From IMG/VR virus record IMGVR_UViG_3300030330_003037, positions 1-32,896 of that record: a stretch of 32,896 nucleotides of DNA, one strand, 5' to 3'. Of this stretch, positions 2,132 through 22,723 are shown piece after piece. This DNA is from a virus (lineage: Duplodnaviria > Caudoviricetes). Numbering within the stretch: the first letter of the stretch is position 1; each line of letters begins with the position of its first letter. The notes under the pieces were generated by a model. It was not told where the DNA came from. It worked only from the letters and a program-made list of their open reading frames with translations, and searched no databases. The position numbers and the translations under genes are program-made.

Positions 2132-2223
2132 TGCCTTAATTGACTATCTTTCCTCGATACTACCCCTTGCTGGAGCGGTTTGAAGGGGGGTAGGGGTTGA
2201 AAACCTCCGTTATTGTGGAGCGC

Positions 2224-3477
2224 ATGGCAGTAAAAGAGCAACCGATTGAGCTTCGCTGGGCACAAGGCGAAGTTTTCAAGTGCGACAAACGTTTCAGGGT
2301 GTTGGTTGCGGGTCGCAGATTCGGCAAATCGTACTTGGCTTGCGTTGAGCTGTTGCGTGGAGCGTTGAATGCACCGGGCGAGACGTTTTTTTATTGTGCT
2401 CCGACGTATCGGATGGCAAAGGATATTGCGTGGCGAGCGTTAAAGAAGCTGGTTCCAAAGGTTTGGATCAAGGCGAAGAACGAAACCGACCTTCGGATTG
2501 AGCTGATTAACGGTTCAACGATTGAATTGAAGGGTACTGAGAACGCGATGGCGTTGAGGGGCCGCAGTTTGAGCGGTGTGGTGTTGGACGAGGCTGCATT
2601 TATGGAGCCAGAGGTATGGTTTGAGGTAATTCGACCTGCTTTAGCGGATAAGGAGGGCTGGGCGTTATTTATTTCAACACCTGATGGGACGGCTAGCTGG
2701 TTTTACGATTTGTGGTGTTATGTAGAGGAAGATCCGAAGGATTTATGGCGTCGATGGAGCTATACGACGATTGAAGGAGGAAATGTTAGTAAACAAGAGG
2801 TCGAAGCAGCCCGCGCTCAACTTGATTCGCGCACGTTCCGCCAGGAATTTGAAGCGTCGTTCGAGAACCTCACCGGACTGGTCGCCATCAGCTTCTCCGA
2901 CGACAACATCTCCCCCGACGCCAAGGACATCTCGATCCAACCGTTGCTGCTAGGCGTTGACTTCAACGTTGATCCAATGAGCGGCATCTGTGCGGTCAAA
3001 GATCAGGACACGTTGTACGTGTTTGACGAGATCATGTTGACGGGCGGGGCCACCACTTGGGATTTTGCGGAGGAAGTTACCCGTAGGTATGGGGTGGATC
3101 GTCGGGTTATTGCTTGTCCTGACCCTACGGGCGGAGCCAGGAAGACAAGCGGTGTGGGCGTAACGGACCACGCAATCCTCAGGCGCAGTGGCTTTACGGT
3201 TCAAAGTCCTAGGTCGCCGTGGAAAATCCGTGACAAGATCACAGCGGTCAACACTGGCCTAATGGACGCTTCTGGAGCGCGTCGGGTGAAGATCCATCCA
3301 CGTTGTAAGGAGTTGATCAAGTCGTTGCGGACGTTGACCTATGCCCCTGGGACGGGTCTACCTAACAAAAATCTAGGCGTGGACCACGCCTTTGATGCTT
3401 TCGGGTATCTTGTGCTCCAACAGTTCAACTTGGCCAAGCCTGAGGCCATGGGAACTACGTCATACCGCTTGTATTGA
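2224..3477 (+). CDS. terL: Terminase large subunit
   Basis: Walker A AGRRFGKS, LRGRSLSGVVLDEAAF (Walker B), ISTP motif, nuclease motifs GVDFNVDP and DHAFDAFGY; ATG 2224. Confidence 0.95.
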   Translation: MAVKEQPIELRWAQGEVFKCDKRFRVLVAGRRFGKSYLACVELLRGALNAPGETFFYCAPTYRMAKDIAWRALKKLVPKVWIKAKNETDLRIELINGSTIELKGTENAMALRGRSLSGVVLDEAAFMEPEVWFEVIRPALADKEGWALFISTPDGTASWFYDLWCYVEEDPKDLWRRWSYTTIEGGNVSKQEVEAARAQLDSRTFRQEFEASFENLTGLVAISFSDDNISPDAKDISIQPLLLGVDFNVDPMSGICAVKDQDTLYVFDEIMLTGGATTWDFAEEVTRRYGVDRRVIACPDPTGGARKTSGVGVTDHAILRRSGFTVQSPRSPWKIRDKITAVNTGLMDASGARRVKIHPRCKELIKSLRTLTYAPGTGLPNKNLGVDHAFDAFGYLVLQQFNLAKPEAMGTTSYRLY

Positions 3478-3479
3478 GG

Positions 3480-3734
3480 ATGTTCCGTCCGCTCAACGCG
3501 CCTCTCTGCCCAAAATGCGGCTCAGAGGAGTCCAAGGTGATGGGGCGATATACGTCACAGGACAACGATTGTGTGCGTGAGCGGCGTTGTTTGAGTTGTG
3601 ATCACCGTTGGAAGACGCTGCAATCAGCTGAGGAGGCGCTTGATCCGTCGATACAGGTGCGATTTTTCCGATGGAATTCACCGAGTGGTAGCAAACGGCG
3701 CGTAACGCTGGAGTATGCGTCGAAAAGTTCTTAG
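3480..3734 (+). CDS. Zinc-ribbon protein resembling the NrdR N-terminal domain
   Basis: CPKCGSEESKV...RERRCLSCDHRWKT; too short to include an ATP-cone. Confidence 0.7.
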   Translation: MFRPLNAPLCPKCGSEESKVMGRYTSQDNDCVRERRCLSCDHRWKTLQSAEEALDPSIQVRFFRWNSPSGSKRRVTLEYASKSS

Positions 3735-3830
3735 GATGGCGGGGTAACTTTGCCAAAAGGCGAAGGACAAGTCTCCTGCAGCGGATCAGGAGTGAGGGAC
3801 GCCAGGTGCGCGAGCCGGTTCTAGTCCGCA
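3735..3830 (+). ncRNA. Candidate structured RNA (three-way junction plus pseudoknot)
   Basis: P1 UGGCG/CGCCA, P2 CUUUGCC/GGCGAAG, P3 CUCCUG/CAGGAG; P3 loop GCGGA is complementary to downstream UCCGC; fills the intergenic gap. Confidence 0.55.
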
Positions 3831-3844
3831 ATCATTTAGGGCGT

Positions 3845-3850
3845 TAGACT
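3845..3850 (+). promoter_or_regulatory. Putative -10 element TAGACT (also at 4419, 7561, 12093)
   Basis: Identical TAnnnT hexamer 21-30 nt upstream of four gene starts in the structural region. Confidence 0.5.
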
Positions 3851-3874
3851 GAATTTGTCGTCGCATTTTGCGTC

Positions 3875-3964
3875 ATGCCTAAGGGTCCTGGAACTTACGG
3901 CACACAAAAAGGCCGTCCGCCCAAGAAGAAAAAGGGCATGAAAAAGGGCAGCAAAAAGATGTGA
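3875..3964 (+). CDS. Small Lys-rich basic peptide, 29 aa (not in ORF track)
   Basis: MPKGPGTYGTQKGRPPKKKKGMKKGSKKM*; TGATG-coupled to the next gene; downstream of TAGACT. Confidence 0.7.
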   Translation: MPKGPGTYGTQKGRPPKKKKGMKKGSKKM

Positions 3965-4194
3965 TGGCTGCCCGTAAATTTCGTAAAACCCGCAAGGATC
4001 CCAAGACTGGGGTAGCACAGAAGTACCTTTCTGGCTCTAAAAATCGAGCCGCTAAGGCGGCAGAGATTAAAGAGACTGCCAGGAAGTACAAGCGGGGCGA
4101 AAATATCGACGTCAAAGCCGTCAGTCGTTCCAGGAGCCAGCAGGATGCCAGCAAAACCACTAAACGAAAAAACAAAAAAGGCTCTAAGAGATAA
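3964..4194 (+). CDS. Small basic protein
   Basis: Very K/R-rich 76-aa ORF with a coupled start. Confidence 0.7.
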   Translation: MAARKFRKTRKDPKTGVAQKYLSGSKNRAAKAAEIKETARKYKRGENIDVKAVSRSRSQQDASKTTKRKNKKGSKR

Positions 4195-4396
4195 GGCTGA
4201 GGGCACCCGCTTCACTTACGGCGAGCTGGCTCAGGTTTATCGTCGTGGGCAAGGTGCATACCTGTCTAGCGGCTCCCGTAACGTTTCTATGGCGGCTTGG
4301 GCAATGGGTAGGGTTAACAGCTATATGTCAGGCAAAGGAGGCGCTCGCAAGGCCGATTCTGATATCTACAAAAAAGCGCGAAGTCGCGGTAAGTAA
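4145..4396 (+). CDS. Small basic phage protein
   Basis: 83 aa; YRRGQGAYLSSGSR...AWAMGRVNSY...ADSDI pattern, recalled from marine phage small proteins. Confidence 0.75.
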   Translation: MPAKPLNEKTKKALRDKAEGTRFTYGELAQVYRRGQGAYLSSGSRNVSMAAWAMGRVNSYMSGKGGARKADSDIYKKARSRGK

Positions 4397-4454: not shown

Positions 4455-4877
4455 ATGGCCATCCTTCGCGGAGAGCAAGGTGCGGTCCAGTTTGACGCTG
4501 CTGGTTCTTCCAACGCCACTATCGTCGGTACTCGCAGCTGGACACTGAACATCACCAAAGAAACGCTGGACGTTACCGATCACGGTGACACGTTCCGTAG
4601 TTTTGTCGGCAGCATGGTCAGCGGTTCTGGCACTGTTGAGCTGGTTTACGACCCAGAGGCAAGTGGTCAGGCTACTTTCATTGAAGACGTTGTAACCACT
4701 GCAGACCCTGCAGACGCAACTTTCGAGTTGTTCACGACCGGCACCACCTCTGGCACTGACTCTGTAAGTTTTGCCGGAATCATCACCAGCATGGATATTT
4801 CGTCCACCGTTGGTGATCTGGTTGTTGCCACCTGCAACTTCGTCACCAGTGGCACCATCACTTCCAACCTTGAATAA
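4455..4877 (+). CDS. Major tail (tube) protein
   Basis: 140 aa, beta-rich and T/S-rich; WTLNITKETLDVTDHGD, SGSGTVEL, FAGIITS, ATCNFVTSG fit siphovirus tube proteins; no other tube candidate in the tail operon. Confidence 0.8.
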   Translation: MAILRGEQGAVQFDAAGSSNATIVGTRSWTLNITKETLDVTDHGDTFRSFVGSMVSGSGTVELVYDPEASGQATFIEDVVTTADPADATFELFTTGTTSGTDSVSFAGIITSMDISSTVGDLVVATCNFVTSGTITSNLE

Positions 4878-4888
4878 GGGTTGATCTG

Positions 4889-5173
4889 ATGGCCAAAATC
4901 GAGCGTGGTGGCCACGTTTTTGATGGCTACAACAAGCCGATCCGTACTCCTGGGCATTCCAGCGGTAAATCCCATGCTGTTGTTATCAAAGACAACGGCA
5001 AGGATCGGCTGATTCGATTTGGCCAGCAGGGTGCCAAAACAGCAGGCAAGCCAAAGCCTGGCGAAAGCGAGGCGATGAAAAAGAAACGTGCTGCCTTTAA
5101 AAAGCGACACGCCAAAAACATCGCCAAAGGCAAAACCAGTGCTGCTTACTGGGCAAATCGCGTGAAATGGTGA
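4889..5173 (+). CDS. Small basic phage protein
   Basis: KSHAVV...LIRFGQQGA...FKKRHAKNIAKGKTSAAYWANRVKW; ends immediately before the portal start. Confidence 0.75.
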   Translation: MAKIERGGHVFDGYNKPIRTPGHSSGKSHAVVIKDNGKDRLIRFGQQGAKTAGKPKPGESEAMKKKRAAFKKRHAKNIAKGKTSAAYWANRVKW

Positions 5174-5174
5174 C

Positions 5175-6677
5175 ATGACCTACTCCGTTCCAGGACTCGT
5201 CAGAACGCATCTCGTCAGCTCTTCCTATATGGGAAGTGTTGATAGTCCGTTCGTGCGAACACGGGCTGTGATCGACCAGATGAAGGGCTGGGAGATCATG
5301 AAGGCCGTTACAAACGGAACGGAGTATTTACGTGAAAACAGCGAAGCATTCCTGCCTCTAGAACCCCGCGAAGACTATTCCGCATATCTGGCGCGGGTCA
5401 ATCGTTCAGTTTTTACGCCTTACACGCAGCGGTTGATTCGAGCTGCTGCAGGCTTAATTCTTCGCAAACCAATCAGCATTGAAGGCGACCCTTATTGGAC
5501 AGAGGTCTTTAATAAGGATGTTGATGGATGTGGATCGGATTTAGATGAGTACGCTCGACGACTCTTGATTTGTGCCCTGACGTATGGGCACTGTCACACG
5601 CTGGTTGATTTTCCTGCGCCTTCGGACGCAAGAAGTCTTGCAGAGGAGCGTGCTCTTAATCGTCGGCCCTATTGGATTGAAGTGGATCCAACCAACATCT
5701 ACGGTTGGCGACTGGACCGCGAAACCAATTATGGAAACCTTACACAGGTTCGGATTGGGGAAAAGGCAGTAGTCCCTGATGGCGAGTTCGGAGAAAAAGT
5801 TTATGACCAAGTACGTGTCATCGAGCCTGGTCGTTATCGCGTCTTTCGACAGGAAGAAGAGAAAAAAGAAATGCAAGGGAAGTTTCCATACCCCTCTGCA
5901 TTCGATCAATCCGACGCTACGTCGCAGTATGAGCTGGTTGAATCTGGTCCTTACTCGCTCGATCAAATTCCACTGGTAACGATCTATGCGAATAAAACGG
6001 ACACAATGACCAGTAAGCCACCGCTTCTGGACATTGCTCATCTCAATCTGGCGCATTATCAACGGCAAGCGGACCTTATCCACAGTCTCCACATTGCTTC
6101 GCAACCGATGCTCGTCCTTGAGGGTTGGGACGACCAGACGAAGGACATGGCTATCAGCGTTAATTACGCGATGGCGACCCAGCCGGGTAACAAGGTCTAT
6201 TACGTGGAGCCTGCATCAAGCGCGTTTGAAGCGCAATCATCGGAAATACAAGAGCTACAGCAGCAGATGGGGACGCTTGGGATCAGCACGTTGAGCCAAC
6301 AAAAGTTTGTTGCTGAATCTGCTGACGCCCGCCGTCTGGATCGAATTGATCAAAATTCGATGTTGTCGATGGTGTCTATGGATCTGGAGTCAGGCTTGCA
6401 GAAGTCCTATGACTTGGCTGCAAATTATCTGGGCATTGAAGCTCCAAAGGTCAAGATCAGCCGTGACTTCGATCTGCAACGTCTGATCGGACAAGACATT
6501 GCTGCGATGGGTCAGCTGTTTGAAGATCAGATTATTAGTCGCGAAGAGTTCCGCGACATGCTGGTTCAAGGTGAGATCCTGCCTACAGCAGCAGAGCAAA
6601 AGCAAGATCCTCCCAGTGAAGAGTCTTCACCCAACAGCGATCAAATCGACCGTCTAATCAACGCAATGATGCAGTGA
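5175..6677 (+). CDS. Portal protein (DUF4055-like)
   Basis: 500 aa; [51 protein letters not shown] motifs; lies between terL and the capsid genes. Confidence 0.9.
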
Positions 6678-8481: not shown

Positions 8482-9561
8482 ATGGCCGCACCATTTCAGA
8501 ATTATTCCGGCGGTGTCCTTCTGGCGGACATCGTAAAAAGGAATAATCTCAGCACCTATGTGTCTGAGGCAATCAAAGAGCGCAGCCTGTTCGTGAAGAG
8601 CGGTGCTGTGGTTCGTAACGCTCTTCTCGATGCACGGGAAGGCGGTAGCCGCATTCAAGTTCCTGAGTTCAATCCTGTGTCTCCGACTGAGGAGATCATG
8701 GACGGTACTGCTACGTGGGGCACCAGCTCTGCTGGCTACCTGACTCCTCAAAAGGTTGGCACCGGAACTCAAATTGCAACCATCTGCCATCGCGGTTTTG
8801 CGTATGCAGTGGATGACGTTGCAATGTTGGCCGCCGGTGAAGACCCGATGCTTCACATCCGCAACCAACTGGCTGATGCCATCAACAAGCTGAACAGCGC
8901 ACGTCTGTTCTCTCAGCTTGCTGGCTTGTTCGGCACGGCACTGTCTGGCAATGCACTGGACAAAGGTGTTGCTGCCGCTTCTGGTGGCGCTGAAGCCAAC
9001 TTCCTGACTGCTGCGAACGTTGCTGAAGCTCGTTCCAAGCTGGGTGAGCGTGGCGAAGAGCTGGACACCATTGTTGTTCACCCCTCCGTTGCTTTCTACC
9101 TGTATCAGGTGGGAATGCTGACCTTCTCCACTTCTGCACTGGCTGCTTCTGGCGCGGTGACTTGGGGTGGCGGTGGCGTTGGCATTGGCGCTCGCGAAGT
9201 TGGTGAGTTTGCCGGTATGCGCGTCATTGTTGACACTGCAGTCAACACTGTTGCTCCTGGCACCTCTGGCCACCAGCGTGAGTTCTACTGCTATCTGATC
9301 AAGTCCGGCACCATCCTTGAGGGTGTGCAGCAAGATCTTCGGATTGAAGCTGACCGCAACGTGCTCTCGAAGCAGGACGTCCTGTCTGTGGATTACCACT
9401 CTGCTTATCACGTGATGGGCACCAAGTGGTCTAACGCCGCTGACAACCCGACCAATGCCACTTTGGCAACGGCTGGTAACTGGGCCGCTACCTATGACAT
9501 CGACCTGATCCCCATGGTTCAGCTCACCGTCAACAGCCCCCTGGACACCACCACCATCTGA
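8482..9561 (+). CDS. Major capsid protein
   Basis: 359 aa after the scaffold; FVKSGAV, DPMLHIRNQLA, LGERGEEL..IVVHP, IEADRNVL; strongly biased codon usage; followed by a terminator. Confidence 0.9.
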   Translation: MAAPFQNYSGGVLLADIVKRNNLSTYVSEAIKERSLFVKSGAVVRNALLDAREGGSRIQVPEFNPVSPTEEIMDGTATWGTSSAGYLTPQKVGTGTQIATICHRGFAYAVDDVAMLAAGEDPMLHIRNQLADAINKLNSARLFSQLAGLFGTALSGNALDKGVAAASGGAEANFLTAANVAEARSKLGERGEELDTIVVHPSVAFYLYQVGMLTFSTSALAASGAVTWGGGGVGIGAREVGEFAGMRVIVDTAVNTVAPGTSGHQREFYCYLIKSGTILEGVQQDLRIEADRNVLSKQDVLSVDYHSAYHVMGTKWSNAADNPTNATLATAGNWAATYDIDLIPMVQLTVNSPLDTTTI

Positions 9562-21142: not shown

Positions 21143-22723
21143 ATGGCAACCCACGATTACGTCCTTGCCAACCAAAGCGGCAGTTCGTTCCGTTCGGACC
21201 TGAACAACGCATTGGCTGCAATCGTCAGTCAGAACAGCAGTGCGACAGAGCCCGCAACCAAGTACGCCTATCAGTACTGGGTCGATACCAGCGCAACACC
21301 TGCGCTGATTAAGCAGCGGAATGCTGCAAACAATAATTGGGTAACTCTGGCGGAAGTTGGCGGCCAAACGCTTGCTGATGATGGAACGAATGCAAAGCCT
21401 GGTATCTCGTTTGCTGATGATGTGAATACGGGCCTAAAAAGAAATGCCGCTGATGACGTTTCAATCGTCACAGGCGGCACTCAAGCCATCACGATTGATA
21501 GCTCACAAAATGTTGCGATTGGTACGTCAGGTCCAAGTTCCCAATTGCATTTAAAAAAATCTGACGCTACTGCTTACAGCGCGACCGCAACAGACGGACA
21601 AGTCGGCGTTGGTCCTACTTTATATCTAGAGAACCCAGCAAACACTAATGCAAGTGTCGGCGGTCAGATCGTATTTGGTATGCGATCAACCGAAGAGCAA
21701 GTAAGAATCGCTGCAACTGGTGGAACTACACCTGCACTGACTTTTGGCACTGCAGATGTTGAGCGGATGAGAATCAATTCCAGCGGCAAAGTTGGTATTG
21801 GGACGACGAGTCCTGAAGCAAAACTAAACATTTCTTCTGGGGATGTAGGATTTACTCCAAATGCAGACGCTGATGAACTATTTCTTGAGCATACAGATAA
21901 TTGCGGAATAACGATAGGCTGCGGTCCTAATAAAACAGGCAATATTTACTTCGGCGAGCAAGGAGTAGGAACTAGTCGTGGCGCAATTGTGTATAAAACA
22001 AATGGTAATTCCATGGCCTTCAGCACTGCTGGGCTTACAAATGAACGGATGAAAATCAATGGCAATGGCTACGTCACCCTTGCAGACCAAGCAGCGAGCA
22101 ACGCCATGTTGAGCATTCCTGTTCTTAGCAGCGGTATTGGTGCGATTACATCAGAAGCAGGCACTTCAGGTAACCGCCTCCATATGCGTTTCAAAAACAC
22201 TAACGGCTTAGTCGGCTCAATTGTTACAGGCGGCAGCGGAACCGCATATAACACTTCATCTGATTATCGACTAAAAGAAAATGTTGTTGACATTGCTGAT
22301 GGCATAACTCGCGTCAAGCAACTTGCACCAAAACGGTTCAACTTTATTGTTGATGCAGACACAACCGTTGACGGCTTTTTAGCTCATGAGGCGCAAACTG
22401 TCGTACCAGAAGCTGTTACTGGAACGCAGGATGAAACGGAAAATATCGGCACTCTCACTGAATGGGATGGAACCGTTCTTGAAACTGATGTTGTTGAGCC
22501 TGCGGCTGACGAACTGACTTGGGAAGAAACAATAACTGATGAAGACGGCAACGAAACCGTCGAGACTCGCACCCGTACTTGGACTCAAACCGGCAGCCAA
22601 CCTGTATATCAAGGCATTGATCAAGCTAAATTAGTGCCTTTGTTGACTGCTGCGTTGCAGGAGGCAATCGCCAAGATCGAAACGCTCGAAACCAAAGTCG
22701 CTGCTCTGGAGGCTGCTAACTGA
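21143..22723 (+). CDS. Tail fibre with C-terminal intramolecular chaperone (peptidase S74-like)
   Basis: ERMRINSSGKVGIGTTSP-type repeats; TSSDYRLKENV cleavage motif, GFLAHEAQTVVPEAV, KLVPLLTAALQE coiled coil. Confidence 0.9.
   Translation: MATHDYVLANQSGSSFRSDLNNALAAIVSQNSSATEPATKYAYQYWVDTSATPALIKQRNAANNNWVTLAEVGGQTLADDGTNAKPGISFADDVNTGLKRNAADDVSIVTGGTQAITIDSSQNVAIGTSGPSSQLHLKKSDATAYSATATDGQVGVGPTLYLENPANTNASVGGQIVFGMRSTEEQVRIAATGGTTPALTFGTADVERMRINSSGKVGIGTTSPEAKLNISSGDVGFTPNADADELFLEHTDNCGITIGCGPNKTGNIYFGEQGVGTSRGAIVYKTNGNSMAFSTAGLTNERMKINGNGYVTLADQAASNAMLSIPVLSSGIGAITSEAGTSGNRLHMRFKNTNGLVGSIVTGGSGTAYNTSSDYRLKENVVDIADGITRVKQLAPKRFNFIVDADTTVDGFLAHEAQTVVPEAVTGTQDETENIGTLTEWDGTVLETDVVEPAADELTWEETITDEDGNETVETRTRTWTQTGSQPVYQGIDQAKLVPLLTAALQEAIAKIETLETKVAALEAAN

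Follow-up and report, generated by a model that had tools for sequence, protein, structure and literature searches.

Does the gap between the packaging and head genes of this virus encode a functional RNA, and if so, of what kind? The window (the whole stretch of DNA analyzed) was a 32.9-kb IMG/VR virus record of a lambda-like siphovirus with lambda-type tail genes, and the element was located between a Zn-ribbon ORF (3480-3734) and a 29-aa lysine-rich ORF (3875-3964). A preliminary description had proposed a three-way junction with a pseudoknot at this site, resembling riboswitches or small ribozymes and matching no recognizable family. Comparison of homologous sequences indicates that the element is a real conserved pseudoknotted RNA structure of roughly 90 bases, belonging to an uncatalogued, strongly covarying small structured RNA family of marine cyanosiphovirus-like phages. 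The features of the locus were as follows:

2215..3477, + strand: large terminase gene terL (phrog_2, E 9e-46)
3480..3734, + strand: NrdR-like Zn-ribbon ORF of 84 aa, the upstream neighbour (Pfam PF22811, E 3e-7)
3732..3737, + strand: -10-like promoter box TAGGAT, overlapping the stop codon of the Zn-ribbon ORF
3744..3768, + strand: 5′ hairpin P0 of variable sequence, with its top at 3748-3754/3759-3765
3773..3792, + strand: P1 stem (3773-3778/3787-3792) with an 8-nt loop; double changes in five of six pairs
3781..3829, + strand: pseudoknot helix of 6 bp (3781-3786/3824-3829); 97% paired, double changes in three of six pairs
3793-3795, + strand: unpaired UGA junction
3796..3822, + strand: inserted arm carrying most of the conserved sequence (P2, bulge, P3, and loop)
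3796-3800/3818-3822, + strand: P2 of the inserted arm; 100% paired, double changes in three of five pairs
3801-3803, + strand: G-pyrimidine-led bulge of the inserted arm
3804-3807/3814-3817, + strand: P3 of the inserted arm, with loop GCGCGA at 3808-3813
3830..3836, + strand: weakly conserved 3′ tail A-W-Y-Y-A-U-U, the predicted 3′ end region
3845..3850, + strand: second -10-like box TAGACT, outside the RNA and serving the downstream small genes; also present in relatives without the RNA
3875..3964, + strand: 29-aa lysine-rich ORF, the downstream neighbour, which differs between copies
5175-6677: portal gene
8482-9561: major head protein gene

The family was collected by pattern scans directed at (i) the core, (ii) the loop plus the 3′ strand (15 of the 64 parts of the collection covered), and (iii) subgroups; the conserved part was revealed by two diverged copies, and a pattern placed on the window's 5′ part was discarded, with only near-identical copies among its 23 matches. 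The core pattern, which required neither stem nor pseudoknot, gave 145 distinct matches, 143 of which possessed both (the two exceptions were one copy cut at a contig end and one chance match). A relaxed descriptor gave 153 distinct members, in which 32 sequence types of P2 and 16 of the pseudoknot occurred; this descriptor demands the helices, so 153 is a count and not a test of the fold. Homologues were also present in contigs of six of eight RNA-labelled runs, where the contigs extended into both flanks, so that no ends, strand, or level could be read from them, and were absent from contigs of the other two. One strict pattern applied to GTDB genomes gave seven matches, composed of six chance matches and one true copy, the latter (L476) on a 1.5-kb contig (accession number DATHYR010000577.1) filed in a Pseudomonadales MAG and probably a stray phage contig.

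The covariation alignment comprised 51 of 142 sequences after thinning at 95% identity; 92.8% of its cells paired, and changes on both sides were found in 12 of 21 pairs. None of 500 shuffles scored as high (the sequences are related, so this count is not a probability), and slid controls paired at 24-55%. The compensatory changes that the preliminary description had proposed to look for were thus present in the homologues. With the diverged subgroups added, P2 displayed double changes in all five pairs in an alignment fitted to the model. The pseudoknot loops of 12 representatives made 4-7 Watson-Crick pairs with their own 3′ strands versus a mean of 3.4 with those of the others, and 15 of the 132 non-cognate combinations reached 5 pairs. 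P2 contained 328 G-U and 0 A-C oppositions in 715 cells, though the pattern permitted both; the RNA therefore lies on the + strand, as had been argued earlier from one G-U pair. P0 kept its fold while its sequence varied, with a median folding z of -2.5 and values below -1.5 in 84% of 139 copies.

The helix sequences were free, and the conserved letters clustered in the loop and bulge: besides the loop itself, they comprised the G-pyrimidine with which the bulge begins, the two pairs just beneath the loop (G-C and Y-G), the YRA junction, and the A that follows the pseudoknot. The hexaloop GCG(U/C/A)GA was found in all 153 members, with most loop letters fixed by the patterns, and a scan pattern without fixed loop letters recovered the same GCGNGA loop. 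A GNRA tetraloop reading of the conserved loop was possible, and may still apply in three dimensions, but the hexaloop register folded better in 143 of 143 copies and accounted for the G-C to A-U change. Among 143 copies, the 3′ tail had A at +1 in 140, U at +6 in 130, and U at +7 in 138; pairing of this tail with the P1 base plus the UGA junction was rejected, showing no excess over shuffles at any of five positions in 135 copies. An outer stem joining the 5′ spacer to the 3′ end, suggested by loci L001 and L004, was likewise rejected, since it was not kept in the other copies. The linker varied widely, with no conserved single-stranded seed seen in it, and copies of 52 and 53 nt occurred between the same anchors; therefore, no reading frame is kept.

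The segments named in the preliminary description were all found where it had placed them, and much of its fold survived comparison: the pairing of the loop with the 3′ strand is real, extends to 6 bp, and carries compensatory changes; the hairpin 3748-3754/3759-3765 (its P2) is the top of P0; and the stem 3773-3778/3787-3792 (its P3) is P1 of the fold described here. The stem that was to close the junction (3737-3741/3800-3804) failed, with 65.6% of cells paired versus 65.2% in shuffled alignments, 227 of 500 shuffles as high, and a single double change; of its two strands, the 5′ one falls within the -10 box and spacer, before the predicted start, and the 3′ one is part of another, covarying arm, the one at 3796-3822 that had been overlooked. 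This stem being unsupported, there is no three-way junction: the 72-nt stretch 3735-3806 can fold in this way (z -2.0), but the homologues give no junction. Folding energy alone is weak evidence at this locus, the 96-nt stretch 3735-3830 having a z of only -1.3.

The copies also shared an organization that resembles a transcription unit. A TANNNT hexamer started 36-47 nt before the P1 stem in 138 of 139 copies, versus 1-8 of 137-138 in five control windows, and the first paired base followed this -10-like box by 4-6 nt in 133 of 138 copies. Its TA can be a stop codon in terL-linked copies, and the box was equally present at other sites; no -35 consensus was evident among the copies. A transcription start is predicted near 3744, giving a predicted RNA of 88-100 nt. 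No U-tail was found on the + strand, in keeping with the earlier view that the element is not itself a terminator, and a canonical terminator within 150 nt was present in four of 43 terL-linked and seven of 95 other copies, which is the background level. In 44 of 45 terL-linked copies, the distance from the pseudoknot to the second -10-like box was exactly 15 nt. A TARACT-type -10-like box was observed about 33 nt before small lysine-rich ORFs, at 3845-3850 in the window and at the same position in many of loci L003-L080; it often overlapped the upstream stop codon and recurred with or without the RNA.

One cultured carrier was found. Model R1, built without this phage, matched Synechococcus phage S-H1 (accession number MK105819.1) at 22,092-22,166 (E 0.007), in a gap that bears no annotation, downstream of terminase; model R2 includes S-H1, so its E-value for this phage is circular. 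The S-H1 copy was diverged, with every element present and the helix letters different, and displayed the layout -10-like box, RNA, intrinsic terminator some 8 nt past the pseudoknot, and second -10-like box; the terminator was common to five of six metagenomic S-H1-type copies. Of the 14 cultured cyanophages and the one single-cell virus record that were searched, only S-H1 carried the RNA, and two weak model matches were rejected: that in KBS-S-2A was located inside an annotated CDS, and that in S-CBS2 disappeared with the second model. A blastn search of three variants against 50,697 GenBank phages gave nothing real, and one with the S-H1 variant against GenBank phages recovered S-H1 alone. 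At about 300-400 of locus L666, an S-H1-type copy had its pseudoknot 3′ strand and terminator replaced, representing either a decayed copy or a chimeric contig.

The host is likely a picocyanobacterium, because (i) the capsid protein matched best one single-cell marine virus record and then cyanophages, (ii) the 12 best matches of the ThyX adjoining other RNA copies were Synechococcus phages only, and (iii) a cultured Synechococcus phage carries the RNA.

The copies occupied at least six sites, among them one after terL, one at the boundary of the lysis module and the early operon, and several intergenic positions within the early operon, close to ERF, SSB, PD-(D/E)XK, and ThyX genes. terL was the commonest upstream neighbour in relatives (46 of 143 copies, within the fetched flank), and the RNA was present at six of 86 terL 3′-end loci. 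The Zn-ribbon ORF was a non-obligate partner: among 80 loci fetched with the Zn-ribbon protein, the RNA followed that gene in three, and the remaining loci led straight to the next gene or had a small ORF in the place of the RNA. Each of 19 records with a match had one full copy, and no locus had more than one core. Both models found the RNA absent from all six records at least 90% complete, which had been chosen for lacking it at terL. Orientation could be assigned to 147 copies, with 144 on the late-gene strand and three on the early-gene strand; as for the next marked downstream gene, 150 copies divided into 77 with an opposite-strand gene, 40 with one in the same orientation, and 33 for which it was unknown. 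On the best reading of this patchy spread, the cassette behaves as an optional, accessory-gene-like unit. The diverged copies L600, L601, and L615 occupied a site used by many other copies, between the PD-(D/E)XK gene and its neighbour, but in the opposite orientation.

Several observations concern the surroundings of terL. The terL-portal gap looks like a swap zone for small promoter-led cassettes. Between terminase and portal lay a changing assortment of tiny, strongly basic ORFs (29-94 aa), at 3875-4396 and 4889-5173 in the window and also after the Zn-ribbon gene in L001, L003, and L005; it included DUF5824 and, in relatives, DUF5872, and the proteins may condense DNA or belong to the virion. 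The major tail protein gene (4455-4877) preceded the portal gene, an unusual order. The ORF 1751-2131 on the - strand, adjoining terL, is a small-terminase candidate by position only, with no PHROG or Pfam match; it was divergent from terL in the window and co-oriented with terL in L004 and L245.

The earlier view that no known family is represented was borne out by covariance-model search: Rfam 15 gave no matches in the window at the gathering threshold (the best around the element, in 3600-4000, had E 9.8), and the S-H1 copy gave only sub-threshold matches, mostly to its terminator. Full-text literature searches gave no published description of the RNA. The preQ1-II aptamer, pistol, and twister share a stem whose loop pairs with a downstream strand, and preQ1-II has in addition an inserted hairpin and a 5′ hairpin. 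However, preQ1-II gave no Rfam match here, and the pseudoknot contains no ribosome-binding site; the helix order of pistol differs; and the stem needed for a twister-like reading was broken in variants that keep the pseudoknot. The searched parts of a catalogue of structured RNAs from IMG/VR (PMC10690425) contained no match, and its alignment files might still list the RNA. The manA (RF01745), wcaG (RF01761), and PhotoRC-II (RF01717) motifs are likewise structured RNAs of cyanophages or marine origin recognized by comparative genomics, but they precede particular gene classes, with manA and wcaG in T4-like phages (PMC2864571), whereas the present RNA had no Rfam match and no fixed downstream gene. 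Type III antitoxin RNAs and phage pseudo-ToxI resemble it in having an H-type pseudoknot and in acting by binding protein, and phages can use such antitoxin-like RNAs as decoys; these antitoxins, however, are tandem repeats (34-36 nt in the ToxIN family) cut by a cognate toxin (PMC5086642), unlike the present RNA, a 90-nt single unit that includes an inserted hairpin and has neither repeats nor a toxin gene nearby. Pfam and PHROGs scans of the neighbours detected no ToxN, CptN, or TenpN toxin beside the RNA. The RNA thus possesses the full set of defining features of none of the families tested.

The reading to which we give evenly balanced confidence is that of an optional, independently transcribed, protein-binding small RNA of about 90 nt that would act free. 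A free accessory RNA gene agrees better than a leader does with the promoter-RNA(-terminator) layout, with the occurrence as a single copy that moves between sites, with the frequent opposite-strand neighbours, and with the finding that the RNA can be dispensed with. Two of the findings that weigh against such a free RNA, namely a late-strand bias that a purely trans-acting RNA does not require and the absence of a canonical terminator within 150 nt of most copies, also count in favour of an antiterminator or anti-pause element that works in cis on the nascent transcript, like HK022 put. Such an element would remain bound to RNA polymerase and take it past terminators and into the late genes, and, for copies placed among early genes, antisense through those genes. 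This we consider a serious rival, though unlikely, and rank above the readings weighed after it. Like putL and putR, the RNA is phage-encoded and compact, of a size similar to their ~70 nt, and promoter-proximal, as putL directly follows its promoter (PMC9378689); its first transcribed bases, moreover, contained a -10-like NANNNT in 40 of 60 distinct starts versus 21.6 expected, a weak excess given the relatedness of the sequences. Against this, put is described as two stems plus a triplex, with no pseudoknot, acting on co-oriented downstream genes (PMC9378689), whereas the present RNA is pseudoknotted and often faces opposite-strand genes. S-H1 and five relatives have the intrinsic terminator and then a fresh -10 box directly after the RNA, nearly all terL copies have the second box, three copies are inverted, and complete relatives do without the RNA.

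A leader function fared worse. The riboswitch-like character suggested earlier, which the topology (5′ hairpin, stem with its loop pairing 3′, and hairpin in the connecting loop) does recall from preQ1-II-type aptamers, is disfavoured: no common downstream gene or expression platform was found, the 3′ strand of the pseudoknot does not form a ribosome-binding site, the next gene lies on the opposite strand for more than half of the copies, and where the RNA follows terL a separate -10-like box precedes the next gene. A packaging RNA of the phi29 pRNA type, being essential, would be expected in every genome of its phage group; the frequent adjacency to terL would suit such a role, but the rarity of the RNA at terL loci and its absence from the near-complete relatives are a poor fit to an essential motor part, and we regard a riboswitch, leader, or packaging RNA as very improbable. 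That the RNA is a novel self-cleaving ribozyme of small size, or a processing signal, with cleavage at the G-pyrimidine bulge or a junction, is improbable to a slightly lesser degree. Small ribozymes are common in phage intergenic gaps, and the compact pseudoknotted core of about 60 nt has few invariant unpaired nucleotides; yet no Rfam ribozyme family matched, the sole ribozyme-like match being Hammerhead_II on the S-H1 minus strand (17 bits versus a threshold of 37), a strand excluded by the G-U counts, and a unit equipped with a promoter, a 5′ hairpin, and (in the S-H1 group) a terminator of its own would have little but itself to cut. Least probable of all is a mimic of the tRNA acceptor, in which P1 and the pseudoknot helix would form a continuous stack of about 12 bp ending in an NCCA-like 3′ overhang, on the pattern of the tRNA-like structures of plant viruses: the two helices (6+6 bp) are indeed joined with zero spacer, and AACCA follows the helix in 43 of 143 copies, but the tail reads YYA in place of CCA and lies one base off the register that a discriminator-CCA end would need, no T-loop consensus is present, and ARAGORN found no tRNA genes.

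If the RNA does act as a free accessory small RNA, host RNA polymerase would initiate near 3744, the 5′ hairpin and the 3′ pseudoknot would protect the RNA ends, and the 3′ end would be set by the terminator in the S-H1 group or by trimming back to the pseudoknot in most others. The sequence-free helices would form a scaffold presenting the conserved bulge and GCGNGA loop to a protein; conservation confined to loop and bulge on such a scaffold fits shape recognition by protein. Because the spread is patchy and accessory-gene-like, the most likely partner would be a host factor titrated or inhibited by the phage, e.g., a defence nuclease or an RNA-binding regulator. Weighing against this reading as well, no protein partner co-occurring with the RNA was found, nor any host RNA that it might mimic, the latter in cyanobacterial genomes with one strict pattern only.

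More tentatively, the family may represent a new class of mobile phage small-RNA genes swapped between sites by marine cyanosiphoviruses, providing RNA-only counter-defence or host control through a cyanobacterial defence protein or RNA polymerase. S-H1 growing on Synechococcus WH7803 offers a cultured phage-host pair, in which expression, ends, self-cleavage, antitermination, and partners are directly testable. Few phage RNAs acting through protein binding have been characterized; a decoy RNA directed against cyanobacterial defence would, if true, be a notable finding, as would a second mechanism of the put type or a new class of ribozyme.
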